IMG/VR virus record: IMGVR_UViG_3300022670_001835
Coordinates: 1-39,163 of that record
Origin: a virus
Lineage: Duplodnaviria; Caudoviricetes
DNA: 39,163 nt
Reading direction: 5' to 3' (one strand)
Both the position numbers and the translations under genes were made by a program. The notes beneath the pieces are model-generated. The model saw nothing but the letters and a program-made list of their open reading frames with translations, made no database searches and was not told where the DNA came from. Positions 1 through 36,254 of the stretch are shown in pieces; position 1 is the first letter of the stretch, and every line of letters starts with the position of its first letter.

Positions 1-2862
1 TCAGGTATCATCTGCAATTATTTTTTCGGTTCCATTATCAAATTTTACTCTAAATGACTGTGCTCCAGCTATATTAATTATATAAAAACTAGTAAATCCA
101 TTTGGAGGTGTAGGCGGTGAACTGGGTCTATCACTTATTTGAGTCTCTTGTGAAAGAACAAAAATAGATGCACCGTCAAATTTCCATTTAGATAATGTAT
201 TTTCAAATGAGGCTATAGGTGCACCATTATCTGTAATAAAAAAATCTGTATTTGACTCTAATCTAATTTCTAGGATATCTTGGATATCATCTATAGTATT
301 AATAGATGCAACTGCTGCACCCAAAATTGTTGTAAAATCAATTTTGAATACGTCAATAATACTATTGTTATCGAAACTGGAGGCACCTCCAATAAATCTA
401 AATCCATCAGCAGAAATAAACTCCATATCTAATCCTAAAGCAAATGTAATCTGTTTATTATTTAGATTCATTCCTAGTATAGTGGCATCTTTTCCAATGG
501 TTAACAGATTACTAGTTGTACTAAGATAAAATAATGGTGAACCGACATTACCGTTTTCTATAATAATAAAATCGTCATTTGTTGGAATATTTATAATAGA
601 TGTACTTGTACCTGCCACATCAACTCTGCCTAACATGTGAGTATTTGTAGTAACAGAAGTATCAAAAGGAAATCTTATCTTACCTGCATAGATGTTATCA
701 ACTATATCTACTCCATCTCCAATGTCTCCAACATCTAAAATATCGTGTCCGTCAAGATCTAAATCCACACCAAGCAATTTCAGTCTGTCTATGTTCAAAT
801 CCAGTTGTGGTGAATTATTAATTGTCCATGAGAACAAAGCGGAAGTAGGAATATTAAAAATCATGCTGTCAGGAGAGTTAGTTCTTAATATCATATACTC
901 TGTTCCTACTGTAGAGGTACTTTGTGGAAATCTTAATCTTCTAACGTAGATGTTAGACCATTCATCTCCCAAAGTTGAAGATCCGAAATTTCCACCGCTT
1001 GTTGTATTTGGTAATATATCACGATTCATCCTTACTACATCAACTAGATTATCTAGTTGTAAGTTAGCACCACTGGTACCACCCCCAACTACATCAACAT
1101 TAACTCCATTTTCTTTAGTCCTGAATTTATTAGTGGTCAAATTATACCATAAATCCCCATCAGCAGTAATACTAGGATCAGTAGATACAAGTCCAATATT
1201 TACTCCAGCATTTGCTGTATCTGGATTGAAAACTGTTTGTAGTCCGTCAGCGTATGTAATAAGAGTAGGAGATATCTCCATAAGTTTTACATTATTTGAT
1301 GTAAAAAGATGTGAGCCTGATATGGGTGCATTATATCTAAATTCATTAGAGCCACCGTCATATCCAATTACGGGGACTCCACCAGATCCAGAAAATGAAG
1401 CAGCTACATCCCATGAAATATCTTTTGCATCTTGAATTGAATGGTCTAACATGTTTAGTCTGTACACATTAGTAGCCGATTCTTCAAATCTTGCTATTTC
1501 AACTGTACCTGCTTTAAAAATATGAGATTGTAAATTATTAACATCATAGAGTAATCCACCATCAGGGTCTGCTTTATTTCGAATAAATTGACCAGCTTGG
1601 AAAAAATCAATTTCTTCAACATCAAAAATATTAGATATAAATAAATTATTTCCATAAATATTATCCCACGGAGCAGCAATAGTGCCCAAATCATCGGTTG
1701 TTCCTGCAGGGAGAAATGTTACTGATGCAACTGTTGTTGCACCTATTTCAAATGAATGCTCAGGATTACCACCTATATGAAAAGTGTACACACCACCAAC
1801 AGGAATGTTGAATTCCATGAGACCATTTTCCATAGTAATGCCTGCATCACTAGCTCCCAATGATCCGCCTACACCTGTATCAAATAGTAGACGGTCTATA
1901 TTTTTAGAATCAAATGTGGCATGGTCTACATCTGATACTGCTGGAAAGTTTGCCCATAATGTAGAGTCATTAGATCCACCATTTACAATATTACCAGTTT
2001 TTAAAAATGCATAAAATACACCAAATGCATATTCTATTAGAATCCCAGTTTCATTATCTGGGTCTAAAAGTATTCCCGCCTCTACTATCTCTTTGTTTAT
2101 TGTTCCTACAGGTAATGTTACTGTATGACCTCCTGTACCATCTTGAAGAATAAAGATACTAGAAATTGCAGTTTTGTTTGATGGCGGCACACTAAATGCT
2201 AATTGTATATCTCCAGAGATTATCATGTATACTGAATGTCTAGTTTCTGCAGAAAATAGAATCGCTTGAGTTGATGCACCGACTGTTCCCCTGTCATCTT
2301 CGGGGAAGTCTATTGGAAATGATATTCCTCCACCACCTCCTGAACTAACCCATACAACAACCCATGCTGACAATAACTGAGAGTAAATTAATTTTGCATA
2401 GTCTCCTACTTCTAAAATTACATCTACACTGTTTGGTGTTAGAATTGATGTGATTTCTTTTATTGTGATGATTTGTGCAGCAGCCTGTACTATTAGTTCA
2501 CGATTAGATGGTACAGTCTCGCCAGGTATTATTGTAGATAAAGTGTCATCTGCACCACCTTCACCATTTAATATTAGAACAGGGGTAAAGTTTCCACTTG
2601 TAACATCCACTTGGATAGTATCATTTATAATTTCTAAAATTTTAAACTGGTTTCCCATTGCACCTTCTCGTGTATCACCATCCTTTAGTAGATAATTTCC
2701 TGCACCTGTTGTTATATTAGCAAGACCTGTACTGTTTAATCCATCTTCGCTAGTTTCTTTGAAAATTTTCTCAGATTCTATTTGAATACGATCTGCATCT
2801 AATATGGAATCGCTAACTCTACTATCTGTAGAACGTTGACGTCTGATACCTGTGGATGCCAT
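1..2862 (-). CDS. Large tail fibre / receptor-binding-like structural protein (953 aa)
   Basis: Long Gly/Thr/Asn/Ile-rich beta-type ORF at the distal end of the tail module. Contains the fibre-like motifs 'ILQDGTGGHTVTLP', 'ADGDLWYN' and 'DLGTIAAPWDNIYG', plus polyGly hinges. Its stop codon is bases 1-3. Confidence 0.65.
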   Translation of the reverse strand: MASTGIRRQRSTDSRVSDSILDADRIQIESEKIFKETSEDGLNSTGLANITTGAGNYLLKDGDTREGAMGNQFKILEIINDTIQVDVTSGNFTPVLILNGEGGADDTLSTIIPGETVPSNRELIVQAAAQIITIKEITSILTPNSVDVILEVGDYAKLIYSQLLSAWVVVWVSSGGGGGISFPIDFPEDDRGTVGASTQAILFSAETRHSVYMIISGDIQLAFSVPPSNKTAISSIFILQDGTGGHTVTLPVGTINKEIVEAGILLDPDNETGILIEYAFGVFYAFLKTGNIVNGGSNDSTLWANFPAVSDVDHATFDSKNIDRLLFDTGVGGSLGASDAGITMENGLMEFNIPVGGVYTFHIGGNPEHSFEIGATTVASVTFLPAGTTDDLGTIAAPWDNIYGNNLFISNIFDVEEIDFFQAGQFIRNKADPDGGLLYDVNNLQSHIFKAGTVEIARFEESATNVYRLNMLDHSIQDAKDISWDVAASFSGSGGVPVIGYDGGSNEFRYNAPISGSHLFTSNNVKLMEISPTLITYADGLQTVFNPDTANAGVNIGLVSTDPSITADGDLWYNLTTNKFRTKENGVNVDVVGGGTSGANLQLDNLVDVVRMNRDILPNTTSGGNFGSSTLGDEWSNIYVRRLRFPQSTSTVGTEYMILRTNSPDSMIFNIPTSALFSWTINNSPQLDLNIDRLKLLGVDLDLDGHDILDVGDIGDGVDIVDNIYAGKIRFPFDTSVTTNTHMLGRVDVAGTSTSIINIPTNDDFIIIENGNVGSPLFYLSTTSNLLTIGKDATILGMNLNNKQITFALGLDMEFISADGFRFIGGASSFDNNSIIDVFKIDFTTILGAAVASINTIDDIQDILEIRLESNTDFFITDNGAPIASFENTLSKWKFDGASIFVLSQETQISDRPSSPPTPPNGFTSFYIINIAGAQSFRVKFDNGTEKIIADDT

Positions 2863-5800
2863 TATACACCATTCTCAGGATATAATCTAGTTATTAGTGA
2901 ACCTTTCGAGGTGAATCCTGCGGGCCCATCAAGTGTTTTTGTGAGTTTGTATACTATTTTATCATTAACCATTTTTAGTGTGTGGGGTATTGCATCTGTC
3001 GTCTCATCAATTTCTTCTGTATCTGTATAGTATATACAGTCACCATGTGAAATATCACACCTGCCCTCAAAATCAATTTCGAATCTTTGCTGTGCAAATC
3101 CAAATAGTCTAGCCAACCCAAGTATTAAATTTTTTGCTGTTTGATAGTTTGAAAGGTCGGTTTTTTTCTGGTCTACCATGTCAATATTTTTTGATGGAAG
3201 TGCGTTTGGTTCATCCACATTTGTAACATATAGTGGTTTTACATATCGAAACGCGTCTATTGCCATTTCTAGTTGTGATGCTGCACCGAATCTATTAACT
3301 TTACCGCCAATAAGTTGTGATAGATGTGCAGCAGGTGAGCCTGACTTGTATCTACCTTGTGAATCAAAAGAGTCTCTTGTGTATATTCCACCAAATAGAA
3401 TATTATTTTTATCAAACGCGTCTGTTGGCTCTGGCTCTCGTGCGTTAAAAGTAGCAGAAGCACCTGGAACACCTGAATAAAATTCTCCTGGTAGTTTTCC
3501 TTCTTGTGGTGTAATGTCATTATTTTTACCTTGTGTGAATGGCAAGATTCTCGTATTATCTCTAATATCAATTAAGAAAATTCCAATCTCATAATCTCCC
3601 TCACTTTGTAGCGTATCACTTCCAAGATAAGTGTCAATAAACTCAAACCACATTGCAATGGATTGAATTGGTCTGTACTGTTCTGATTTTGCACCAAACC
3701 AAGAGATAGAGCCATCAGCAGTTCTAGTCATGTTATCCAAATCAAATGTAGACGTGTTGATTATTTCACCTGCATTGACTGTACCATAGGGTATTGCATT
3801 TGATGATACAGGAAATAGTCCTGGAAAGAAATTAAATCCCACATAGAATGGATTTTGTTCGTCACTTGGTGCAGAGTTTGCATTAGATTTTATGAACACT
3901 GCAGAGTTATCGTTAATGTCGTCAGATGATAATCCACCTTTGTTTCCAACTTCTACATGTCCTGAATCTGAATCATACTTTACAGAATGTGCACACTCAA
4001 ATTGTTTTATTTCCAGTGGTGAACCTTCACCATAAAATACTGCATTCTGTCCAATAAATGGAATTTCATAGATAGCGTATGAGCCTTTTCTCCAGTTATT
4101 TGCTCTAGTTGCAGCACCGCCAAGATTAAACACAAAATCACCTGCAGAGTTTACATAACTATCAGGTATTCCAATAAAAAATGTAGGTACTCCTGGATTT
4201 TTTACCCAAGGTAACCCCTCATCGTGATCAAACACTTCTTGATCTTGTAATGTTTGTTTTGCTAAAAATACTATCCATTCACCTACGCCGTCTAGATTAA
4301 AGTCTTCATATTCTACAACATTTCCAGCATATGGGATTCCATTTCTATCAATACCTACAAATTCTCCAACTCCTAACTCACTTCCATCTGTTGGGTCAAT
4401 TACAAGCATACGATAATGATTAGGAATTAATGAATTTACCAGATGGTCAGATGGTATTGCTGCAGGTGATGTGCCGATACTTCTTACCATGGTTCTTGGG
4501 TGTAGTTTGTCTTTTACTATTACATTAGGATCAATCATTGCACATTGATTGTGTTTTGTGGCATCTGCAGCATATTTTGCACCTCCAAGTGCATTAATCC
4601 AATATTGAGCCTTTTGTTTTGTTTTTGGAGAGTAATCATTTGATGGTACATATGATATTCTTCTCCATAATGTAATGTCAGTTCCAGGTTCTATCGGGTC
4701 TCCACCACCAATTAGTTTCTTATACGCAATACCTTGGAATACAACTAGTGCATCTTGTGAATAACTTGCGACATTAGTCCAATCAGCTGGTCTTGTGAAT
4801 GTCCTTACAATCCAAAATGAATTATTGGGAGGAATCTCATTTGTGGATTGTGTGATTGCTTCATATCTTGCTCCTTCATGTACAATTAGTGAACCTCTTT
4901 TGAATGTGGTTGTACTATTCCATGTTCGTGCGTTTTGGAATGTTTGTTTTGAACCAAAATATTTGGTAAAGGCACCAAGAAAATCACCTCCTTTTTGACT
5001 TCCGACTAGGTGAATGTTTGTAGCAAGTTCTGGGTCTTCATCAGAATCATTTTCTAATGTATTAGTTGTTGTATCACTTGTAACTCCATGTTTTAGAGTG
5101 ATGTTTGGAATATTACCAAACACCCCTGTATTACTTACAAATCCTTGGGGATATGCCTGAATAGATACTTGGTCAAGTAAAGTGTCTGTGCTGTGTATAT
5201 AGTCAGACTTGAATCTAATGTAGAATGGCTCAAAAGAACCTCCGCCTTCTGGTGGTTGTGCTTCAATGTCTATTATTTTATCAAATGCTTCTTGTAGTTT
5301 TTTCTTTTCAAATATGTAATTATTTGATGTTCCTCTATCTAATGCGATTCCTTTCTTTGTAATTGGATCAAATGTTGTATTGGTATTTATGACAGGATCA
5401 TTAACTCCTTTATTTGCTGGGTTGTTTAGTTGTTCAATTATTTGCTCAACTGCTTCTGCACCTGAAATTCTTCTTGAGAAAAGAGAGATGTTGCGTTTCC
5501 ACAAATACTCACTTTGATGGGGACATATTAGAACAAGTTTCTTTCCCTTTCCACCTTTTCTAGAACGTTTTAATTTTCTTACATGGAAAACATCTTTGAA
5601 GATGTTTCCTCGAACATCAGTAATTTGCAGATATATTCTGTCACCTTTTTGTATTTTGGCTCCTCTAGTTAGAAATTCACCAAACGCTGCAGACAGTGTA
5701 ATTTTAATTGACTGGGGTATACCATCTTCTACTTCTATAACACTCCATGCAGAGGATAAATCAACATCTGTTCCATGGTCTTTTAAGATTAATAGAACAT

Positions 5801-14224: not shown

Positions 14225-15502
14225 TTAAAACTGACCTAAGTTGCGTCCAGTTATTGGGTCTTGCCAATTACAACGACAATTACTTAGTATTATGCCATTG
14301 CCAGTGTATAATGTGGATTTAGTTTGAAGGTCGTACACGTACCCAGAATAGGATTTTACATTGATGTTGATAATCTCATCAAGTTGTATAATGGAGGAAA
14401 ATCTGTCAATACACTTGCTGATATTTTTGAGTGTAGTAGAGGATACATCACTAAACATCTCTTGGCAAATGGTATTACCCCCAGAGGAAAAAGTACCTCC
14501 ATGTATTTGCGTATGTCTCAAACGTCCGCTAAAGAGAGAGCTCGTCTTTCTAGTGCCGCTCATGATGCGGTCAGAGGGCGAAAGCGTAGTTTCAAGGAAT
14601 TGTGTAATAGTTCTCTGTCTAGAGAGAGGAACCAAACAGGAATTACACCTGTTGAGAAAATGTGTAAAGACATGCTTGAAGAAAGAGGGTTTACATGTAT
14701 TGCTCAAAAAGCTATTGGTGCTTACAATGTCGATATTGCCATGACTAAACCTCGCATCGTCGTGGAGATATTTGGGGGCGGATGGCACGGTAGTGGTACT
14801 CATGCTAAACGATTTAGAAAGAGAGTCAAATATCTGCTTGATAATGGTTGGCTTCCTGTTATTATTTGGGTTGATGGGAAACATTTTCCTTTTAGTATTA
14901 GAGCTATTGATTATTTGGTCGCCCTTTCTAAGAAAATCAGCAGCAACAAATCCCTTAGGAGTAAGGAGAAGATGATTCGGGGTGACGGTAAGACTACTGC
15001 CATTGGAAGTAAGAATATCTATAACAGGACCATAGTATACACTTCTAATTCCTGCAAGGATGCCATCGCAACCCTCGATTAGAGTATCAGGTAACACACA
15101 GTTCGGATGCAATGAACTTGGTATACGTGGTCTTTGAGGATCGTCTTTTGCCCAAACCTCTCCTTGTTTAGGTAGGCATATCTTATCATCAACTTTAGAG
15201 TCTTGTTTGGTCATGAATAGTAGAGGTGTTTTTCCTGCTAGGATTAGTCTAACTACTTCTTCATCATCCGATAGTATTTGTGATATTCCACTTGCTATTA
15301 CACTAGAAAATCCTGCTAGAATTAATGCATTAATGAATCCATCAGATTTTGGCTCGGGTTTTGATTGTATGGTTTCTTCTGTAATTTGTTTTACTAGTTC
15401 TTCTTGTTGTTGTATAGTTGATGATATGTAGATGCCTTCTGCTTCTGATTTAGTAAGTCCCGATTTAACCATCAAAGAGATAAAATCACTTTCACTTGAC
15501 AT
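14225..15502 (-). CDS. MuF/SPP1 gp7-like minor head protein interrupted by an intein (425-aa precursor, 151 aa spliced)
   Basis: 'DSKVDDKIC...G.VW...P.IP..LHPN|CRC': the conserved HPNCRC motif is restored when residues 135-408 are removed. Directly downstream of portal. Confidence 0.88.
   Translation of the reverse strand: MSSESDFISLMVKSGLTKSEAEGIYISSTIQQQEELVKQITEETIQSKPEPKSDGFINALILAGFSSVIASGISQILSDDEEVVRLILAGKTPLLFMTKQDSKVDDKICLPKQGEVWAKDDPQRPRIPSSLHPNCVLPDTLIEGCDGILAGIRSVYYGPVIDILTSNGSSLTVTPNHLLLTPKGFVAADFLRKGDQIINSSNTKRKMFPINPNNNRKPTIIKQIFDSLSKSFSMSTTTVPSAPKYLHDDARFSHGNIDIVSTNSFLSNTCKPSFFKHVFTHFLNRCNSCLVPLSRQRTITQFLETTLSPSDRIMSGTRKTSSLFSGRLRHTQIHGGTFSSGGNTICQEMFSDVSSTTLKNISKCIDRFSSIIQLDEIININVKSYSGYVYDLQTKSTLYTGNGIILSNCRCNWQDPITGRNLGQF
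14279..15100 (-). mobile_element. Intein (274 aa, Cys1...Ser-Asn, +1 Cys)
   Basis: Block A CVLPDTLI, block B LTVTPNH (TxxH), block F SGYVYDLQT, block G NGIILSN followed by C. Confidence 0.92.
14324..15082 (+). CDS. Antisense-encoded homing endonuclease: HTH + Vsr/DUF559-like PD-(D/E)xK nuclease (252 aa)
   Basis: HTH 'LIKLYNGGKSVNTLADIFECSRGYITKHLLANGI' and nuclease 'TPVE...L...G....Q..IGAYNVDIA.....VVEIFGGGWH...KR..YL...GW..IIW'. Entirely nested in the intein on the opposite strand. Confidence 0.85.
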   Translation: MKVVHVPRIGFYIDVDNLIKLYNGGKSVNTLADIFECSRGYITKHLLANGITPRGKSTSMYLRMSQTSAKERARLSSAAHDAVRGRKRSFKELCNSSLSRERNQTGITPVEKMCKDMLEERGFTCIAQKAIGAYNVDIAMTKPRIVVEIFGGGWHGSGTHAKRFRKRVKYLLDNGWLPVIIWVDGKHFPFSIRAIDYLVALSKKISSNKSLRSKEKMIRGDGKTTAIGSKNIYNRTIVYTSNSCKDAIATLD

Positions 15503-17333
15503 TACTCTTTAGTTTTTCAAACTTTAGTTGATCATTTGCAAGTTTGAGTTTATCCTTATCAAGTTTGGAAGTTAGTTGTTGTTCTTTTAGTTTAAAGTCT
15601 CTCTCCATCTTTTTTCTTGTCTTGTCAAGATTCTTTTCACCGTTAATTTTTTTGTTGATATTTGCTATGAGGTCTCCTTTTTGTTTGGTAATTTCATTTA
15701 TACTATCATGTTGATGTATCATAAAATTTTTCTTTAGTGGTCTGCTTCGAAGATTACCATTTATCTTTTCCCAAGATGGATGTTTTCTTCTATAGTTAGG
15801 ATCAAATGTTTTAGTTGCGGGAGTTGTATCAGTTCCCATATCTGGAGAATTAGTCATCATGTGACGCAAGCCGAATTCCTCCATAACCTGCTCCATTGTT
15901 GTGTAATTGTTATCTACCAAAAACATCATAATATTCCACTCATCAGTTGTTATTGGAACCGATATATTTGGTTTTTCAAAGTTGTGTATTACTTTAATTG
16001 GTAGTTCATCAACATCTTCGGGTTCTAGATCAAAGAGAATTGCTAATATTCTATCGTAAAATTGGTCCTCTGCAATGTGTTCTAGCAGTTCTTGTTGTGG
16101 TTTTATTTTTGTATTTTGAAATGCGTTAACTTCTTCTCTATTGGCGTTTCCTCCAAGATTACCCGATTCTCCATGCCCTACCATGTATGGTGGAATATTA
16201 TCAAAGCCGATGATGATTTTAACTGCTTCGTTTAATATTTCATTAATTCCTGAGATATCGCCAGAGTCGGTTCCTGATGGGTTTAGTAGTTCTACATTGT
16301 TAGTTACGGAAACTGTTTTGTTTTGTGATTGCTCCATTTTAGAATTAAAATCATCTAGTAATACTTTTACTTCTGACCAGTCTTTTGATGGTAATGTATG
16401 TTTGAAGATTGGTTTAGTGTGCCATGTTTGTAGTATCGCCTCATTCCAATCTCTTCCTAAAATTAACAGTACAGCTTTTCCAACATCAATCAATGAACGT
16501 ATTGGTATTCGTCCATAGAAATCTCCATATAGTTCTAGATTTTTAGAGAAATTAAAATAGATACATCTTTTACTATTCAGTACAGCACCATTTGTTGTAA
16601 GATTTGATACCTCCACTCCTGCCATTTCTCCAGTGTCTAGATTAACAATAGGTCGCCTCAAAAATTCTGGTCTAATTATTTTTAATGCTTGTGGGAGTTG
16701 TAGTTTCCCATTACTTTTTCTATCAAGTGGAAACATTCCAATACATGCTCTTCCTTGTGTACGCATAAACAAATACACATCAAACAGTAATGAATCAAAA
16801 TCTAACGTCTTAGCATAACCGTCTAACCATTTTAGAATATTTTTTGGTGTTACTTCTTTATCCCAGTATGGGACGTATATCGGTTTGTTCTCCCATTGGT
16901 CTAGTGTACCTTCTGGTAATTCTATTTCACCTCTTGGTTGGATAGAACGTGTTGAATTCGTAACTACAAGTTGTTGTAATATTTCACTGCCTGCTAGTAT
17001 TATGGGATTTTCTTCCATTAACAGATCACACATTGCTCTAATATCAGGAGAGTATGGATCTATGGATGGATAGATGATTAAATCTTTGAATGGTTTTAGT
17101 TTTCCTTGTTTGTCTTTTTTAAATGGAGCAAGTTTTCTATATGCTAGCTGTTTTGTTGTGTCTAATCCTTTTTTAAAATCAGGTTTAGTTAATCCTCTTT
17201 TATGCCATTCAGGTATTTGTGCGAATCTTTGTGGGCCACTAGTATATTTTTTAGTGTTTAAATCTATTTGAAATAATTCATGGTTACTAGATACAATTCT
17301 AGAAAATATATCCATTACTGTTTTTTTAGCCAA
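15492..17333 (-). CDS. Portal protein (613 aa, TTG start)
   Basis: Lies between terminase and minor head protein. Portal motifs 'DFYGRIPI', 'IIIGFDNIPPYMVG...NANREEVNAFQNTKIKPQQ'. Confidence 0.88.
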   Translation of the reverse strand: MAKKTVMDIFSRIVSSNHELFQIDLNTKKYTSGPQRFAQIPEWHKRGLTKPDFKKGLDTTKQLAYRKLAPFKKDKQGKLKPFKDLIIYPSIDPYSPDIRAMCDLLMEENPIILAGSEILQQLVVTNSTRSIQPRGEIELPEGTLDQWENKPIYVPYWDKEVTPKNILKWLDGYAKTLDFDSLLFDVYLFMRTQGRACIGMFPLDRKSNGKLQLPQALKIIRPEFLRRPIVNLDTGEMAGVEVSNLTTNGAVLNSKRCIYFNFSKNLELYGDFYGRIPIRSLIDVGKAVLLILGRDWNEAILQTWHTKPIFKHTLPSKDWSEVKVLLDDFNSKMEQSQNKTVSVTNNVELLNPSGTDSGDISGINEILNEAVKIIIGFDNIPPYMVGHGESGNLGGNANREEVNAFQNTKIKPQQELLEHIAEDQFYDRILAILFDLEPEDVDELPIKVIHNFEKPNISVPITTDEWNIMMFLVDNNYTTMEQVMEEFGLRHMMTNSPDMGTDTTPATKTFDPNYRRKHPSWEKINGNLRSRPLKKNFMIHQHDSINEITKQKGDLIANINKKINGEKNLDKTRKKMERDFKLKEQQLTSKLDKDKLKLANDQLKFEKLKSNVK

Positions 17334-17370
17334 TACTATGGGTTAATTGTAATTGTTAATAGATTTTTGG

Positions 17371-18060
17371 TTATGGGTTTAAGATGCCAGAAGTGCTGTT
17401 AGATAGTGTATTTATTGTCTTTTTCCCCAACATACGATTTATTGTATCTTGAGCATTCAAATATTGTGATTTTTTAGGCTCTCCAACTACAATCATAAAC
17501 GGCATTTGTGCTTTTTCTAGTAAGGTTCTTCCAGCAAAACAACATATCATTAGTGCTTTAATTAGACAGTCTAGTTCATCGCCTGGTGCATAATATGATA
17601 CTGTTCCCTGCTCTGTGGTATTTTCTTTAAACATCTCTGTTTGGGTTATTAGATTAGACATGTATTTTGATAGTTTTTTTGGGAATTGGATTTTGTGAGT
17701 TAGTTTGAGTGATAGGAAAAACTGTACCATTTCTGTCTGATCCATTCTTTTCATACCTTCTTCCTCTTCTGGCTCTTTGATGTTTTTTTGAGTGTTAATA
17801 GCAAATATGTTCAATCCTGATTGATACTCTATATCTTTGAGTAAGTGTTGTCCCACTAGTTGGTCAGCATATGTGGAATCCCATTGTATTTTTTTAGACA
17901 GTATTTCGACGTCAGATGCAATGTGTTCCATGTCTGCTCGCTTCCATGTTTTGGCTAGTCTTACATAGACAATTCTCTTTTCATCGTCAATTTCTACTCC
18001 AACTATTCCAATATCAGTTCTTTTCTTTGTTTGTGAAAATGCAACTATTGTCTCATTCAT
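17371..18060 (-). CDS. Degenerate paralog of the terminase nuclease domain (229 aa)
   Basis: Aligns by eye along its length with the 18073-18636 protein (YVRLAK/YIRLAK; HKIQFP...MSNLITQT/HIIQYP...MQELINQT; GTVSY/GHTSY; LDCLIKALMICC/HDDLFMSLLIGC) but lacks the first catalytic Asp and the HDD motif. Confidence 0.75.
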   Translation of the reverse strand: MNETIVAFSQTKKRTDIGIVGVEIDDEKRIVYVRLAKTWKRADMEHIASDVEILSKKIQWDSTYADQLVGQHLLKDIEYQSGLNIFAINTQKNIKEPEEEEGMKRMDQTEMVQFFLSLKLTHKIQFPKKLSKYMSNLITQTEMFKENTTEQGTVSYYAPGDELDCLIKALMICCFAGRTLLEKAQMPFMIVVGEPKKSQYLNAQDTINRMLGKKTINTLSNSTSGILNP

Positions 18061-18072
18061 CGTATAATTCTA

Positions 18073-18636
18073 TTACTGGTGGTATTTGTTGTTATTGCAA
18101 TCTTCCCAGAATAGTTTTACAACATTACAGCCTATTAACAAACTCATAAACAAATCATCATGGCGGCTACGGAGTCTCTTGTATGATGTATGACCAGAAA
18201 CAGAAGTAAACCCAGAGATTTCGTTAGTTTGATTGATTAATTCTTGCATGTCAGAGTTTGGGTGTGATGGATATTGGATGATGTGGTTTTTGTATTGTTG
18301 TTTTAACCAGCTTATCATGTATGGTTTATCTACTGTTGTTCCTTTATCTCTTGTCTGCTCTGTTAGTCCTGCGCCTGTTGTGATGTATTTTATAGGTAGA
18401 TTAGTAAATGCTTTTTTTACATTATCATAGTCAAAGTTTTTTTCTAATAGTATTATGTGTGGTTTTATCTGTTGTTGTATCTTTGTGTAGTATTGTGCAA
18501 CTTTGAGGTATGGTACTTTTTTGTGTTGTTTTGCTAGTCGGATGTAGATTTTCTTTTCAGGATAAGTTGCTTCTAGTCCTATAGTTCCAAATGAGTCACC
18601 AGCTTTTGCGGGATCACCTGAAATTACTCTTAACAG
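18073..18636 (-). CDS. terL: Terminase large subunit nuclease (RNase H-like) domain as a separate ORF; frame open to 18645, probable non-canonical start (CTG at 18636)
   Basis: Hand translation upstream of the 81-aa call gives LLRVISGDPAKAGDSFGTIGLE...IILLEKN...DKPYMISWL...RHDDLFMS, with all TerL nuclease acidic motifs. No ATG/GTG/TTG precedes the GDPA motif. Confidence 0.85.
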   Translation of the reverse strand: MLRVISGDPAKAGDSFGTIGLEATYPEKKIYIRLAKQHKKVPYLKVAQYYTKIQQQIKPHIILLEKNFDYDNVKKAFTNLPIKYITTGAGLTEQTRDKGTTVDKPYMISWLKQQYKNHIIQYPSHPNSDMQELINQTNEISGFTSVSGHTSYKRLRSRHDDLFMSLLIGCNVVKLFWEDCNNNKYHQ

Positions 18637-18641
18637 AACCG

Positions 18642-19742
18642 TTATTTATCACCAGAAGTGTAAATATCTGCATCATTAGAAAGGTTTTCAACATATTCAT
18701 CATCTTCGTTATCATCTACCAGCCATTCTGTTTTTCCTTGCTGATCCTCATCAGATATTGTGCCAAATATACTGTCTCTGCCTGATTTGTATTTACACAT
18801 GTATTCTTGGTCTGGATCTTCAGTTGAGGATGCTATTAGAGAATCTACTTCTTGTTGTGTGTTTAGATTACCTAGCGTATGCATAATATCATATACTAAA
18901 AAAACATATTCTTTGGTATCATGTTTCATATCTATTTCATGGAACATCTTTACTGGTCCTTTTGGGGTAGATACTAGAAACAAATCTGCACCGTTAGTTC
19001 TAACAATAGGCATAAAACTATTAAATACAGGTGAATCATCAATTAATTTCCATTTTGTAGTTTCATCTACGAATACACACTTGTAACCTGTATCACCAGT
19101 CATGGCTTCTTCTGTTGCTGAGAATGCTTCTATTTCTGTACCGTTTACAATTTCTAGTGTATTTCTTCTATTGATTACCCCTTCTAGTGTAGCTCGTTCT
19201 CGCCTAAGCCATAATTTTATAACTGGACTTATGGCACGAAAAAGCCTTGCCAGTCTTCTTAGGTTTTTTCGTGCAAGAGAACCACTAGTTCCTGCAATTA
19301 TTGCTATTTTACGTCCTTTATACCGAGTAAAGGACAAGTATAAAATTAGCCTTAAAACAATTTCTGTAAATCCCATTTGTCGGGCTTTTTTTATGTGAAT
19401 TTTTAGGGCTTTTCTTTGTTGTTCAAGTTTGTTACCAAATTTCTCTCTACCATGTATTATTTTATCTGCCATATCCACCTGATATGGAGTTAATGGCATT
19501 TCCTCACCTGTTGCTGAGTGTCGCGGTAGACCTATAATGTGATTTATGCAACATTTGGCTGTATGTTGATAGTTAATGTTTCTTTTATGTAGTGTGTCAT
19601 CGTTACACCAAAACGGTAGTTTTGCAAGTTCTTCGCATAGTTCTAGTCCTTCTTCATCACCTATGATTTTATTTACTGGCTCTGGTTTTGTGTATAACCC
19701 AGCAAGTATAGCCTCGTTAAGTAATTGTTGGGATTTTACCAA
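18642..19742 (-). CDS. terL: Terminase large subunit ATPase domain (366 aa)
   Basis: Adenine-binding LTPYQ, Walker A KKARQMGFT, Walker B VFVDE, coupling motif VSTPKG, and linker 'QEYMCKY...SIF' followed by a stop. Confidence 0.92.
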   Translation of the reverse strand: MVKSQQLLNEAILAGLYTKPEPVNKIIGDEEGLELCEELAKLPFWCNDDTLHKRNINYQHTAKCCINHIIGLPRHSATGEEMPLTPYQVDMADKIIHGREKFGNKLEQQRKALKIHIKKARQMGFTEIVLRLILYLSFTRYKGRKIAIIAGTSGSLARKNLRRLARLFRAISPVIKLWLRRERATLEGVINRRNTLEIVNGTEIEAFSATEEAMTGDTGYKCVFVDETTKWKLIDDSPVFNSFMPIVRTNGADLFLVSTPKGPVKMFHEIDMKHDTKEYVFLVYDIMHTLGNLNTQQEVDSLIASSTEDPDQEYMCKYKSGRDSIFGTISDEDQQGKTEWLVDDNEDDEYVENLSNDADIYTSGDK

Positions 19743-20151
19743 CTCTCATCATCTTAATTACTTCTCTAACTTCACCATTCCCTACATCATCACATAGTTT
19801 GGTGAGTATATCACTTTGAATTTTTGTTAGTTGTCCTTTTTCCATACCTGATAATGGAATTGTTGTTATTTCTTTGTCAACTATAATCATTTTTCTTCCA
19901 TTTTCTTTGTATTCTTCTATTTGTGTAACATATTTTAGGAATAATTCGGCTGCTAGTGAGTAATATTTTATCCATTTCCCTGCTACTATACTAACAAATT
20001 CTGAATCATACTTTAGATTAATCTCTTTTCTGTACTTGGCTACTGTTGGTCTAGAGAGTTTTAATTTATTACATATTTTTTCGTCGGTATATAGTGGATA
20101 TCTGGTTATAATGTCTCTTAATTCTGTTTTCTTTTTTGGGGATAATATCAT
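19717..20151 (-). CDS. terS: Terminase small subunit (144 aa)
   Basis: N-terminal HTH 'DEKICNKLKLSRPTVAKYRK' followed by helices; immediately upstream of and overlapping terL. Confidence 0.7.
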   Translation of the reverse strand: MILSPKKKTELRDIITRYPLYTDEKICNKLKLSRPTVAKYRKEINLKYDSEFVSIVAGKWIKYYSLAAELFLKYVTQIEEYKENGRKMIIVDKEITTIPLSGMEKGQLTKIQSDILTKLCDDVGNGEVREVIKMMRVGKIPTIT

Positions 20152-20186
20152 TGTGCCTATAATGTTAGTACCGTACTAGGTTAAAA

Positions 20187-20198
20187 AATCTTGTTAAG
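20187..20198 (+). promoter_or_regulatory. AATCTTGTTAAG motif, copy 4
   Basis: Exact 12-mer abutting a TTTTTAAC box upstream of terS. Confidence 0.6.
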
Positions 20199-20297
20199 GT
20201 TTACATGCCTAGATTCTTCTATTGTTTCACCTAACTTTGTCATTTGGCGAATTAGTAGTTAGTTTAACTGGTTCTTCTATAGGAGTTTTAACATTAA

Positions 20298-22478
20298 CTA
20301 TTGCAGTAATGCTCTAAAATTACAATTATTTCTTGTGGGTACATTTATCTCATCAAGTAGTGGATCAGTGCACCTGTATGGTTCTGGTAGTGAAATTCTA
20401 GTAAATTCATCATTTGATGCTTTGTGATATTCTACTCCTGTTCCATCAGTCCAAATATTATTGACTTTGTCGGTTCTGTATAAAACTATAGTAAGATTTT
20501 CTGTTTGTTGTGCTGTATGTTTATTGTTCATGATATAATATGGTGTTGGGTTTTGTGATTGACCAAGTACCTGTATTCCATCATTAAAGTAAGAGTTTTG
20601 TGTGTTACGGTTTTTGTCAGTTATATTAATTAACATGATATGATTAAGAGTATTTTCCCGATACGAGTACACTAGAATTACTTTGGTGCAATTTTCTAAT
20701 TCATCAGTATCTTGGCATTTTACAACACTAGCAGTAGCGTTTACTGACTGGTTATTTATGAGGTTATTCTTATCAGTTATTATTATCTCGCCTGTTTTAA
20801 TTCCTGTTGTAGTATTATCCGTAATTAATTCAACATCAATTAAGACCTCGGCATTATTCAACGGCGTGCCTATCTCTTTTACACCTAAACCAAACTGTAC
20901 ACTTTGCATGTTGTGTATTCCACCATTTTCATATACAACAATCTCTACTTTGTTTATCTCTCCTACTGTTGCGTTGATTAACGAGAATTCTGTATGGTAA
21001 TTATCTACTTGTACAGTATTACCGTTATATGAAAATCCATTATCAACTAACCTTATACCGTTATTATCTACTCCCAAAGTTGGTGGAGTACAGTCATTAC
21101 AAATGCTTCTTGGTTTAGGTACTGTTTCTATTTCTGTTTCTATGATTGTTTCTATAGTAACCATGGGTTCTTCAATGGTTATTACTTTGTCAACTATTGT
21201 TTCTATAGATTCTATTTCTTTAGTTTCTATAATAAATGATTCTGTAGTGGGACCAAATAATACTGCTTCCATAAATGCTATATCTGAATCCATCCATTCT
21301 TGTACAACTATTACTAATGTTATTAATATGGCTTCAGTATTAGATGGTGTCGCTGGGTATTCTGGTATTTCATCTTCTATTGATTCTATAAAGTCTAATG
21401 TGTTTTCTACTGACCAGTTATCTAGGTTAAAATCACTAGTCAATTGTATAAGATCATACAATGCTTCTTCGTGCGATAATTCGCATAATCTATAAGGTAA
21501 TTCATCATATAGTTCACCATATATATCGGCTTGCCATAATTCACACCATTCATCATCGAGCCATTCATCATATAATGCATCATGTAATGCATAAAATAAT
21601 TCATCATGTGCTGAATTATACCATTCATCATACCATGGTTGATGCCATTCAAAGAACCATGCTTGACCCCATTCATCATGCCAGTATTCATACGATTCAT
21701 CATGCCATTCATCAGCTACATTATCCGATTCATCATGCCATTCCTCATGCCAGTATTCATATGATTCATCATGCCATTCATCATGCCAGTATTCATATGA
21801 TTCATCATGCCATTCATCATATTGTTCATTATACCATAATTCGTATATTTCTAAAACTCGTGCAAATTCGATTTGTTCTGTTTCCTGCCATGTGGATATG
21901 GATAATTCTACTGATTCTATTTCTATTCTCAAATTAGATACGGCATCGTGTAATTCATCATTAATTGATTGCCAATCTAGTATCGTATCTTCTACTTGGC
22001 ATAGTTTATTCGTCCATTCTATTATTATCGTAATAATTGACGCAGTATTTGTTTCAGTTTCTATTAACGGTGATAGAATATCTTTTAATTCCAAGTATTC
22101 ATGTGCTACATCTGCGGCTTCGTACATTGCTGCATCTTCTGCAGATTGTGCTTCGGATACAGAAGTTTCAGACAAAGTTAACATTTCATACCCCATTAAT
22201 TCTTCTTCTAGTATTATAGAAGCAGAATCAATTATAGAAATGTAGTTATCTATGGCATCAGATAATTCATCTGCATAGACATTAGAAGGAATGCAAATTA
22301 GTGATACACTAAATAATAAGAGTAATAATGTATAATGATTTTTAAATCTTTTATCTACAAAAGAAGCATCATGTATCATTTTATTACATGACAAACATTG
22401 TACTGAATTCTTAGAAGTGAATGTAGTATAGTCACAATTTTTGCATTTTAATATTTTTTTCAACTGTGCAATATACAT
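20298..22478 (-). CDS. Large exported/membrane-anchored acidic protein with W-H-D-E repeats and a thaumarchaeal-type C-terminal domain (726 aa)
   Basis: N-terminal CxxC..CxxC, hydrophobic signal 'LLLLLFSVSLICIPSNVYA', coiled coil, WHDE repeats, and 'CNDCTPPTLGVD...GFSYNG...VYENGG' recalled from Nitrosopumilus surface proteins. Confidence 0.7.
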   Translation of the reverse strand: MYIAQLKKILKCKNCDYTTFTSKNSVQCLSCNKMIHDASFVDKRFKNHYTLLLLLFSVSLICIPSNVYADELSDAIDNYISIIDSASIILEEELMGYEMLTLSETSVSEAQSAEDAAMYEAADVAHEYLELKDILSPLIETETNTASIITIIIEWTNKLCQVEDTILDWQSINDELHDAVSNLRIEIESVELSISTWQETEQIEFARVLEIYELWYNEQYDEWHDESYEYWHDEWHDESYEYWHEEWHDESDNVADEWHDESYEYWHDEWGQAWFFEWHQPWYDEWYNSAHDELFYALHDALYDEWLDDEWCELWQADIYGELYDELPYRLCELSHEEALYDLIQLTSDFNLDNWSVENTLDFIESIEDEIPEYPATPSNTEAILITLVIVVQEWMDSDIAFMEAVLFGPTTESFIIETKEIESIETIVDKVITIEEPMVTIETIIETEIETVPKPRSICNDCTPPTLGVDNNGIRLVDNGFSYNGNTVQVDNYHTEFSLINATVGEINKVEIVVYENGGIHNMQSVQFGLGVKEIGTPLNNAEVLIDVELITDNTTTGIKTGEIIITDKNNLINNQSVNATASVVKCQDTDELENCTKVILVYSYRENTLNHIMLINITDKNRNTQNSYFNDGIQVLGQSQNPTPYYIMNNKHTAQQTENLTIVLYRTDKVNNIWTDGTGVEYHKASNDEFTRISLPEPYRCTDPLLDEINVPTRNNCNFRALLQ
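21540..21840. repeat. Degenerate 12-nt coding repeats encoding WHDE/SYEY tetrapeptides
   Basis: TCATCATGCCA(T/G) and TATTCATATGAT recur on the + strand. Confidence 0.8.
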
Positions 22479-34157: not shown

Positions 34158-34742
34158 CTAGGCATTAGTGAATGCCTCCAATGGTTGATTATTTAATTTT
34201 TCATCATTCCCCCAAGTGTCCCAATTATGTATTCTTGTTCTTGCAAAAAGTTCAATTCTTGGTAAGTCCCCGCAGAGTTGAACAATTTTCTGTCTTACAA
34301 TATCGGGTTTTTTGGAATGTTTTTGTATAGAACTGTGTATGATACTAGATATTTTATTATTGATTATTGTAGTTTTACCTTTTGTTGCAATTAAACAAAA
34401 CTCAGAATTAGATTTAGTGTAATGTCCCATACCAAAAAAACATTTAGCATTAGTAGGGTTGGTTTTAATCCAATTAAACCCAATAGTTTTGTATTTGAAT
34501 CCCCATGCTTTGATCACGTCTAGACATTCTTGAAGATTAGGCCATGTTCCCCATAAAAACAAAATACAATCATCATCTGTGATTTTTTGAATAGGTAATT
34601 TTTTAATTTCGTCTATATTTAATGTATCATAATGTTTGTTAGCTGTACTTCCCGAATCTTGTTTTTTATATAGAAAATATTCCCAAGGAGGATCTGCAAG
34701 AATAATCTTGTACTTTTTATTCGGGAAAGGTGTTATAGTCAT
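34158..34742 (-). CDS. MT-A70 family adenine methyltransferase (194 aa)
   Basis: IILADPPW, LFLW, WGFKYKT..F.W.K, HSKKP, RIELFAR, WDTWGN. Confidence 0.93.
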   Translation of the reverse strand: MTITPFPNKKYKIILADPPWEYFLYKKQDSGSTANKHYDTLNIDEIKKLPIQKITDDDCILFLWGTWPNLQECLDVIKAWGFKYKTIGFNWIKTNPTNAKCFFGMGHYTKSNSEFCLIATKGKTTIINNKISSIIHSSIQKHSKKPDIVRQKIVQLCGDLPRIELFARTRIHNWDTWGNDEKLNNQPLEAFTNA

Positions 34743-34812
34743 CTATGAACTGCCGCCATGGTTAAAATAACAGTCATATAATATTGAAAAATTCTGCACA
34801 TTTTACATGGTA

Positions 34813-35052
34813 TCATTTTCTTCTCAACACTCCTGCTCGAATAAAATTTGGTTTCTCTTTATCATCTCTTCTTCGATTTTTATTTAGACATATACTACAC
34901 AACCATCTAACTTCTTTACCAGATATTGGATATTTTTTTGCATCATCTCTAGGACATTGTGAGCATTTATGTTTTATAGTATGAAATTGTGATGGTAGTT
35001 TTACTTTTGTAGATGTTTGTATTCCTCCATGTGATGCTCTTTTAGGATTCAA
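34813..35052 (-). CDS. Zinc-finger protein (79 aa)
   Basis: CSQC...LCSIC; overlaps the MTase stop codon. Confidence 0.65.
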   Translation of the reverse strand: MNPKRASHGGIQTSTKVKLPSQFHTIKHKCSQCPRDDAKKYPISGKEVRWLCSICLNKNRRRDDKEKPNFIRAGVLRRK

Positions 35053-36254
35053 GATAATCTCTCCAAAATATATTCAATAACTGGAACTGTCACTGCATTT
35101 CCTAAACATTTGTATCTCTGTGTATCGCTCAGTCCTTTTGTATAATCATCTGGGAATCCTTGTAGTCTTTCACATTCGATAGGAGTTAATCTTCTGATTT
35201 TTTCACCATCAAAGATTCCGTGTTTGTCTTGAGCTGTTAACGTAAATGATTCATCACCATCTTCTTTGAAACGTCTTCCGTTTTGTCTTTTTTTGGGTCT
35301 GTCAGGAGTAAGAATAGGTATGGTAATTAATTTCTTACCACCAGTTAATGTAGGAGATAAGTCAGAAGAGTCATGTACACTTGTTCCCATTTCGTGGGTC
35401 ATTGTATCGTCAACATACTCTGTCATTATCTCGTCAAATTTATCATCAAAGTGTAATGCTTGTTTTAGTTCTAACCATTCTTCTTTGTTTGGTAATGCAC
35501 CTGATGAATCAGTTCTAAAGTAATGCTCTAACTGTGTTTTTTTAATTTTAGAGATTTCTGATAACTGTGATAATGTTATTGTTTTATTTTCTCCAATATA
35601 TTCTGCAATCTCTTTTTGATTTGGTTCTTCTTTTCTTCTTTGAAATTGAATTGGAAATGAACCTAATGATTTAATTTTTGGTTCTTTGATTTGTGGTTTG
35701 TGTCGTGAGCTAGTATTTCCTTCAATGCTTTCTCTGATAGGAAATACTTTTGGTCTGGGTGTTCCTCTAAGATATGATATAATGAAGATACGTTCCCTAT
35801 TTTGTGGAACAAAGTATTTACTATTGAGCACCTGCCATTCTGCATCGTACCCGATTTCATCCAGTGTTGCGAGAATGGTTGCAAAGGTTTTCCCTCTATC
35901 GTGAGATAATAATCCTTTAACGTTTTCAAGTAGCAATAGTCTAGGTCTTTTTTGTTCTGCAATCCTAGCAATTTCAAAAAACAACGTGCCTCTTGACTCT
36001 TCAAATCCGAGCCGTTTTCCAGCAATAGAGAAAGTTTGACAAGGGAATCCTGCACAGAGTAACTCAAAGTCTGGGAGTTCTGATGGTTTGATTTTTGTTG
36101 CGTCTTCATATATTGTGACTTTTGGAAAGTGTCTAGAGTAGATTGTTCTTGCATATTTATCAATTTCACAGGCTCCAATAATTTCATGTCCTTTTCTAAC
36201 AAGAGCTAAATCAAAACCCCCAATTCCTGAAAATAAAGATAGACATTTCATCAT
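35049..36254 (-). CDS. dcm: DNA (cytosine-5) methyltransferase with an inserted HTH-like domain (401 aa)
   Basis: Motifs I LFSGIGG, IV GFPCQ, VI ENVKG, VIII QNRER, IX RRLTPIECERLQGFP and X LGNAV. Confidence 0.95.
   Translation of the reverse strand: MMKCLSLFSGIGGFDLALVRKGHEIIGACEIDKYARTIYSRHFPKVTIYEDATKIKPSELPDFELLCAGFPCQTFSIAGKRLGFEESRGTLFFEIARIAEQKRPRLLLLENVKGLLSHDRGKTFATILATLDEIGYDAEWQVLNSKYFVPQNRERIFIISYLRGTPRPKVFPIRESIEGNTSSRHKPQIKEPKIKSLGSFPIQFQRRKEEPNQKEIAEYIGENKTITLSQLSEISKIKKTQLEHYFRTDSSGALPNKEEWLELKQALHFDDKFDEIMTEYVDDTMTHEMGTSVHDSSDLSPTLTGGKKLITIPILTPDRPKKRQNGRRFKEDGDESFTLTAQDKHGIFDGEKIRRLTPIECERLQGFPDDYTKGLSDTQRYKCLGNAVTVPVIEYILERLS
35663..36202 (-). CDS. Alternative-frame ORF nested in the C5 MTase (up to 179 aa)
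   Basis: Same strand, different frame; ends in 'SSLYHILEEHPDQKYFLSEKALKEIL', an MTase-associated L..ILE....KY.LS motif. Confidence 0.55.
   Translation of the reverse strand: MLEKDMKLLEPVKLINMQEQSTLDTFQKSQYMKTQQKSNHQNSQTLSYSVQDSLVKLSLLLENGSDLKSQEARCFLKLLGLQNKKDLDYCYLKTLKDYYLTIEGKPLQPFSQHWMKSGTMQNGRCSIVNTLFHKIGNVSSLYHILEEHPDQKYFLSEKALKEILAHDTNHKSKNQKLNH

Follow-up and report, generated by a model that had tools for sequence, protein, structure and literature searches.

A putative large terminase divided among three genes, including a nuclease-fold paralog without key catalytic residues, in a tailed virus

The 39,163-nt stretch of DNA analysed here, hereafter the window, corresponds to positions 1 to 39,163 of IMG/VR record IMGVR_UViG_3300022670_001835, a tailed virus classed as a provirus in which nearly all long open reading frames (ORFs) lie on the minus strand. 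Within its head module, the functions of the large terminase (TerL) appear to be distributed over separate ORFs that encode a stand-alone ATPase, a nuclease with an intact catalytic set (NUC) and a nuclease-fold paralog (PAR), a three-part layout that had been proposed from the letters alone (the sequence-only reading) and that is borne out here. The order along the minus strand is TerS-like gene, ATPase, NUC, PAR, portal and then further head genes, and the terminase genes between the TerS-like gene and the portal are the only ones in the genome. The likely small terminase (TerS-like; 19717..20151, minus strand, as are the other genes of this module) is a 144-aa protein with a helix-turn-helix (HTH)-like segment at its N-terminus, which overlaps and lies directly upstream of the ATPase gene; it is named by position alone, its matches to DNA-binding families being weak only, and in L001, L002, L007, L012 and L013 its homologs likewise precede the ATPase gene. 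At the opposite end, the 613-aa portal protein (15492..17333) lies directly downstream of PAR, as portal homologs do in related loci, and is assigned from a weak Pfam Phage_portal match (E 0.0014) that, like the capsid matches, falls below the curated cut-off.

The ATPase (18642..19742; 366 aa) matches the TerL family phrog_2 with an E-value of 1.9e-15 across residues 78-332. Its P-loop, K119-A-R-Q-M-G-F-T, is without the usual GK lysine, and we take K119 to be the deviant Walker A lysine of the lambda type; a Walker B motif, CVFVDE (D226, E227), and an STP coupling motif are also present. Residues K119, R121, G124, E227 and T259 are invariant in 49 sequences, and the P-loop reads KGRQMGFT in 117 of 120 homologs and KARQMGFT in the other three. 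Judged by these motifs, the protein appears to possess the N-terminal ASCE (additional strand, catalytic glutamate) P-loop ATPase of TerL, with Walker A, Walker B plus catalytic glutamate, and coupling motif all in place. The chain ends as the sequence-only reading had described, with QEY (312-314) and SIF (324-326) followed by a 40-aa acidic tail (residues 327-366, 18645..18764, containing the conserved Trp340) and then TAA. Homologs are of similar size, at 313-378 aa among the best 120 of 320 matches, with lengths up to 657 aa allowed. The tail has a median length of 37 aa in 113 ATPases of the three-gene type versus 15 aa in 31 ATPases of a two-gene type described below; its first tryptophan is present in all 113 of the former, and a second, terminal one, missing in the window, in 78. 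Near the N-terminus, residues 43-75 (about 19518-19616) contain the motif PFWC...CC..H..GLP.H, possibly a metal site, which is near-invariant in split ATPases and which fused relatives within the same class of archaea also possess.

NUC is encoded in the frame 18073-18645, which is open for 190 codons and contains the GDPA, LLEKN and HDD motifs previously noted there. The catalytic set is intact (D10, D16, E67, H161, D162, D163), and its order and spacing equal those of D294, D300, D347 and H427-D428-D429 in the TerL nuclease of phage G20c. D294, D347 and D429 are indispensable in the G20c enzyme according to PMC5389553, and NUC appears to have equivalent catalytic acids, an equivalence drawn from motif order and spacing rather than from atomic superposition. 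A predicted structure of NUC (mean predicted local distance difference test score, pLDDT, 83) aligns with the G20c nuclease at Z 13.6 and a root-mean-square deviation (rmsd) of 3.0 over 145 residues. For the NUC and PAR models alike, the top 14 structural matches are all terminase nucleases, with RuvC at a Z of about 10, which suggests that both proteins adopt the terminase-type RNase H-like nuclease fold. The connection came through folds only: neither protein of the window has a meaningful match in Pfam, PHROGs or NCBIfam, and a sequence search of solved structures with the two profiles returned nothing useful. In a census of proteins of at least 160 aa, sorted by best-matching profile, NUC proteins retain D10 in 35 of 39, E67 in 39 of 39 and D163 in 37 of 39, and the nucleases of the two-gene type (single nucleases) retain the first catalytic aspartate in 72 of 76 and the last in 76 of 76.

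The NUC frame of the window has no ATG, GTG or TTG ahead of the first catalytic aspartate. The ninth codon before that residue is a standard start in 22 of 32 scored loci (15 ATG, 6 TTG and 1 GTG), ATA in L021 and, in the window, an ACG that overlaps the ATPase stop codon as TAACG (18638-18645). Because the start codon of relatives holds this same position, NUC of the window likely begins at the ACG at 18642, giving a 189-aa protein (18073..18642), or else at an ATA at 18645. Such weak starts (ACG here, TTG in 6 of 32 loci, ATA in L021) may keep the cutter scarce.

PAR (17371..18060; 229 aa) aligns with NUC at 25% identity across 179 columns (E 4e-10), and a profile-profile alignment (probability 99.45, E 4.2e-22, 178 columns) sets AFSQ opposite SGDP and LDC opposite HDD, the correspondence that had been recognised by eye. 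S9 thus replaces D10, T15 replaces D16, L163 replaces H161 and C165 replaces D163, with D66 and D164 retained. The predicted structure (pLDDT 76) matches the TerL nuclease of phage D6E at Z 14.1 and rmsd 2.9 over 152 residues, and a Foldseek match to G20c has an E-value of 8.1e-7. A different fold or a full active site, either of which the sequence-only reading had named as fatal to it, was not found: the fold is that of a terminase nuclease, and the catalytic set is not retained. Among 129 PAR proteins the first catalytic aspartate is present in none (17 gapped), the last in six and both in none, and PAR consequently appears to be without the catalytic acids expected of TerL and is probably inactive. 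Its ratios of nonsynonymous to synonymous substitution rates (dN/dS) of 0.042-0.107 (10 pairs) compare with 0.093-0.201 for NUC and 0.052-0.138 for the ATPase (9 pairs each), several of the pairs being near saturation at synonymous sites, and indicate purifying selection. No match to PAR was found among 50,697 annotated phage records.

The separation of these genes recurs in related sequences. Across 48 loci from viral and metagenome contigs, with repeat fetches of one contig excluded, all three genes are present in 30 and a fused form in none, and the others are for the most part short contigs or break off ahead of the absent gene; all 21 related loci that extend to the portal carry NUC and PAR ahead of it. 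The three ORFs are kept in 13 of 13 loci from a first scan (the ATPase of L013 being itself in two frames), and five long records, four of them with direct terminal repeats, each encode one ATPase and two nuclease-fold proteins. A single ATPase-nuclease chain could in principle be hidden by faulty assembly or restored by programmed frameshifting, by an intron or by a split intein, and such a notion draws on the window's nuclease frame, which is without a standard start and abuts the ATPase stop, on gaps of 60 nt or less in 19 of 32 loci and on a single frame relation shared by 20 of 32. However, of the 34 loci in which the junction was examined and the 32 in which it could be scored, 13 have gaps exceeding 300 nt, some with other ORFs between, and all three frame relations occur (20, 7 and 5 loci), in addition to the start codon held at one position in 22. 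No slippery site of the form X-XXY-YYZ lies within 18601-18760, and neither the ATPase nor NUC has a Pfam intein match, a search that did not extend to RNA families. A separately assembled contig of depth 26 from run X1, possibly the window's own source sample, is identical over 17000-20300, with no other letters and no gaps, in answer to the indel error that the sequence-only reading had allowed for. Assembly error is excluded by the 30 three-gene and zero fused loci, the long gaps and the four terminally repeated genomes; the frameshift and intein readings were likewise rejected, and we give almost no credence to a restored single chain. Matches to the NUC profile, with no length limit, reach at most 364 aa among the best 150 of 195, and no longer, fused form of NUC was found among 7,991 candidates, a result of little weight on its own. 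ATPase and nuclease thus do not appear to reside in one polypeptide, and the three-gene system seems to work like TerL yet is not the single chain by which TerL is recognised.

The NUC profile also recovered proteins that are nearer to PAR and possess the whole catalytic set. These define a two-gene sister group (L119-L163), in which genes for an ATPase (about 300 aa) and for a single nuclease (about 225 aa) are followed by the portal gene. Of 53 sister-group loci, 41 have an ATPase and one nuclease, none has two nucleases and three have a fused-length form; full-length searches of five records, two of them rated 100% complete, likewise recovered one ATPase and one nuclease in each. Small unrelated genes often lie between the ATPase and nuclease genes of this group. 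Terminase_6C is matched by 22 of the 49 members of a nuclease alignment (A6), mostly single nucleases, with a best E-value of 9.6e-14. In a nuclease tree that excludes ten long branches and comprises 42 of 104 rows, NUC (support 100/100) and PAR (98/99) each form a group, both lie inside the free nucleases (87/96) and the fused domains fall outside; a quick tree of all 104 rows agrees. Likewise, 28 ATPases of the three-gene type form one group nested in the two-gene ATPases (Shimodaira-Hasegawa-like approximate likelihood ratio test, 100). The three-gene form therefore appears to be nested inside a two-gene sister group, which is new, and we infer that a fused TerL first gave rise to an ATPase plus one free, long-tailed nuclease, whose gene was later duplicated. 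Two features of the trees count against this order: a single clade of NUC and PAR is neither rejected nor shown (approximately unbiased test, p 0.0885), and the ATPase tree has no outgroup of fused forms, the motif filter having rejected 15 of the 58 locus rows, including all 10 fused ones. Of the earlier view of a modular terminase, the three separate chains stand, and what it lacked is this sequence of events, with the split arising first, in the larger two-gene group, and the duplication later.

A set of 18 single nucleases has 95 conserved columns, of which 12 are retained only in NUC, 24 only in PAR, 15 in both copies and 44 in neither. The NUC-only columns belong chiefly to the active site and include D10, D16, E67, N69, H161 and D163, and the PAR-only columns include K12, R14, W39, G70, H72, K95, D96, G160, E162 and F175, together with the hairpin positions F144, E146, T149 and E150. 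The tail that follows the HDD column has a median length of 59 aa in single nucleases, 60 aa in PAR and 23 aa in NUC, and the median core charge is +3, -2 and +9, respectively. In PAR of the window, the tail comprises residues 184-229 (17374..17511), which are modelled with pLDDT below 50 and represent a candidate portal-binding segment. These patterns suggest that the jobs of the TerL C-terminal domain were likely divided between the two copies.

Because PAR has kept the tail and the non-catalytic surface, and NUC is a short, basic, active-site copy, we favour a reading, at a probability of roughly 0.55, in which PAR makes up the structural half of the motor and faces the portal, and NUC, predicted to cleave DNA, is a cutter brought in separately. 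Indirect support for an adaptor role of PAR comes from its retained ancestral surface and C-terminal tail and from the way its divergence tracks that of the portal: in partial correlations of sequence distance over 20 loci, PAR-portal stands at 0.68, NUC-PAR at 0.64, ATPase-PAR at 0.35, ATPase-NUC at 0.11 and NUC-portal at -0.22. We regard these values as a hint only. They partly follow gene order (PAR adjoins the portal), come from pairs that are not independent, carry no significance test and include one locus of the 20 (L104) in which a PAR protein also filled the NUC slot. Besides these limits, several points weigh against the favoured reading: the NUC-PAR value fits a heterodimer equally well; among the positions kept by PAR are loops L0 and L2 and the beta-hairpin, for which models of G20c show contacts to DNA and not to the portal; PAR tail sequences are variable; several dN/dS pairs are near saturation at synonymous sites; PAR keeps D66, E162 and D164 and may have a residual metal site; and some archaeal chromosomes (L101, L099, L203) carry copies of PAR and ATPase and no intact head module. 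The modular motor envisaged in the sequence-only reading is upheld as to separate chains, one intact catalytic set and one copy of the same fold without it; that copy may act as the adaptor, or as the regulator of cleavage, that it envisaged, and the active nuclease may be dissociable.

A working model for PAR is provided by phi29 gp16, whose C-terminal domain, as described in PMC7672431 and PMC13595956, has the terminase nuclease fold, has lost catalysis, still binds DNA and faces the portal. Fold and loss of catalytic residues are common to both proteins; in phi29, however, the vestigial domain is part of the ATPase chain and packaging requires no cutting, whereas PAR is free and an intact NUC is encoded alongside. 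In the cycle that we propose, TerS would mark the genome and NUC would make the first cut, after which the ATPase and PAR would form a translocating ring on the portal, with PAR lining the DNA path in the manner of the gp16 domain, and NUC would come back to make the last one. The cutter would thus be kept from acting on DNA in transit by its absence from the ring rather than by being folded away, and the lengthened acidic tail of the ATPase could, speculatively, serve as a tether for the basic NUC. This fuller scheme, of a non-cutting translocase built from an ATPase ring and a dead nuclease copy, with a free nuclease called for the first and last cuts only and tethered by the acidic tail, is one that we hold tentatively, at slightly less than even odds; it would mean that evolution has pulled translocation and cleavage apart and that fused, two-gene and three-gene stages are all alive in one archaeal virus lineage.

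The portal-facing role proposed for PAR must be weighed against other uses of a nuclease-fold copy. PAR could be a pseudo-enzyme that joins NUC in a heterodimer, where it would bind DNA, place NUC and control whether NUC is active, similarly to XPF-ERCC1 and Mus81-Eme1. Such an arrangement is suggested by the NUC-PAR correlation, by the placement of PAR after NUC in nearly all loci and by the basic residues K12, R14 and K95 and the beta-hairpin that PAR keeps on the face which, in G20c models, lies against DNA; however, that surface was already conserved in single nucleases that have no such partner and was lost by NUC, and the kept tail is left unexplained. We consider a heterodimer unlikely as the principal role of PAR, and it can hold together with a place in the motor. 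It is less probable still that PAR acts outside the motor, by capping DNA ends, closing the head or serving as a decoy for host sensors of terminase. Extra copies, two in L084 and two flanking the active nuclease of the chromosomal locus L101, would suit such roles; yet PAR is missing from none of the 21 loci that extend to the portal, its dN/dS is low, unlike that of an arms-race decoy, and the tail and surface that NUC has lost would have to be supplied by another protein.

Finally, PAR might still cleave DNA with an active site rebuilt from D66, E162, D164, K12 and R14, in which case two nucleases would split the first and last cuts between them. This idea takes its appeal from the conservation of D164 (129 of 129), of an acidic residue at position 66 (124 of 129) and of E162 (invariant in 49), but no scored PAR protein has the aspartate bridging the two metals, whose place is taken variously by S, A, T or G. 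Moreover, D164 and E162 need no new role, because they are conserved in active single nucleases too, and a second active nuclease therefore seems to us very improbable.

The three-gene system shares with one-chain TerL (G20c/P74-26, D6E, SPP1 G2P, T4 gp17, HK97, Sf6 and P22; PHROG 2; Terminase_6C, PF17289) the ASCE ATPase, the RNase H-like nuclease with the terminase beta-hairpin and a catalytic set in G20c order, and the location between a TerS-like gene and the portal. It differs in its separate genes and in having two nuclease-fold proteins, one of which is without the first and usually the last catalytic aspartate. With the two-gene sister group it has in common the free ATPase with an acidic tail, the free Terminase_6C nuclease and the gene neighbourhood, but there the single nuclease holds both active site and tail. 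In the same 50,697 phage records, the sole match to the ATPase is the TerL of Nitrososphaera provirus Nvie-Pro1 (FR725450.1, CBX88946.1; 24.5% identity), whose host belongs to the same archaeal class and which, unlike the window, is annotated as one coding sequence of fused length (2263-3633, 456 aa). NUC and PAR also match the pUL15/pUL89 nuclease fold of the tripartite herpesvirus terminase (pUL15/pUL28/pUL33) at Z 12-13. In that enzyme, however, a single chain carries both ATPase and nuclease, and the remaining subunits are not known to be copies of the nuclease; the number three is a coincidence.

A literature search, which did not take in supplements and gene tables, found no report that TerL is split in these viruses, whether into two genes or three. 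Primary papers reportedly devoted to marine thaumarchaeal viruses (marthaviruses, amoC-bearing viruses) did not come up, and a split might appear in their gene tables. The accessible portions of PMC6563490, PMC11849493, PMC11705971, PMC7824862, PMC4158269, PMC7689252, PMC9855967, 10.1101/2021.07.29.453957 and 10.64898/2026.08.12.739948 do not describe a split terminase, and those of PMC4981710 contain nothing relevant to one. Most striking are the conserved third gene and the series of stages that has survived.

The three-gene virus group likely infects ammonia-oxidising archaea, and for the window's own virus such a host is assumed from its relatives. PAR adjoins a broken portal gene in a Nitrosopumilus bin, the ATPase cluster includes WOV93179.1 and WOV93172.1 of Ca. 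Nitrosoabyssus spongiisocia, and the head module of the binned contig L104 includes ATPase, a divergent nuclease, PAR and portal genes. The ATPase profile matches 40 of 401 genomes of that archaeal class, where the strongest matches are mostly frames of 290-385 aa and frames of 485-614 aa score far lower. On the chromosome of G009, positions 7641-13056 of L101 encode a TerS-like protein, an ATPase, a PAR-like protein, an active nuclease, a second PAR-like protein and a second ATPase, with no portal or capsid match in 20 kb; this cluster could be either a relic or domesticated. Elsewhere, in L102 and L203 (G009) and in L099 and L100 (G177), arrays of large, repeated, membrane-anchored proteins separate the terminase genes and contain repeated ATPase copies and nuclease fragments. 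L107-L110 and L117 pair a TerS-like gene with a free ATPase of 286-379 aa and no nuclease nearby, and G313, G202 and G167 have a free nuclease gene at another site, next to a portal-like gene in two of the three.

Several further features of the window lie outside the terminase genes. Just upstream of the packaging module is a 726-aa ORF (20298-22478, minus strand) with acidic, Trp-rich short repeats (DEWHDESYEYWH). The head gene that follows the portal (14225-15502, minus strand) contains an intein-like insert at about residues 135-407 (Pfam Intein_splicing, E 4.6e-10), opposite which the plus strand has an open frame of 252 aa (14324-15082) with matches to HTH and restriction endonuclease/DUF559 families. 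Both frames are conserved in L023 (55% and 59%), and it seems that this intein has its endonuclease encoded antisense. MT-A70 and C5 cytosine methyltransferase genes lie side by side at 34158-36254 on the minus strand.

For annotation, the consequence is that viruses of this kind look terminase-truncated, given that neither NUC nor PAR matches Pfam. More broadly, it is unsettled for TerL how the nuclease is silenced during pumping, how it fires when the head is full and which domain meets the portal, because both activities share one chain. In the three-gene system, the motor, the structural C-terminal domain and the cutter could each be added separately, and the positions kept only by PAR (24) or only by NUC (12) provide a list of the residues that likely serve each job.

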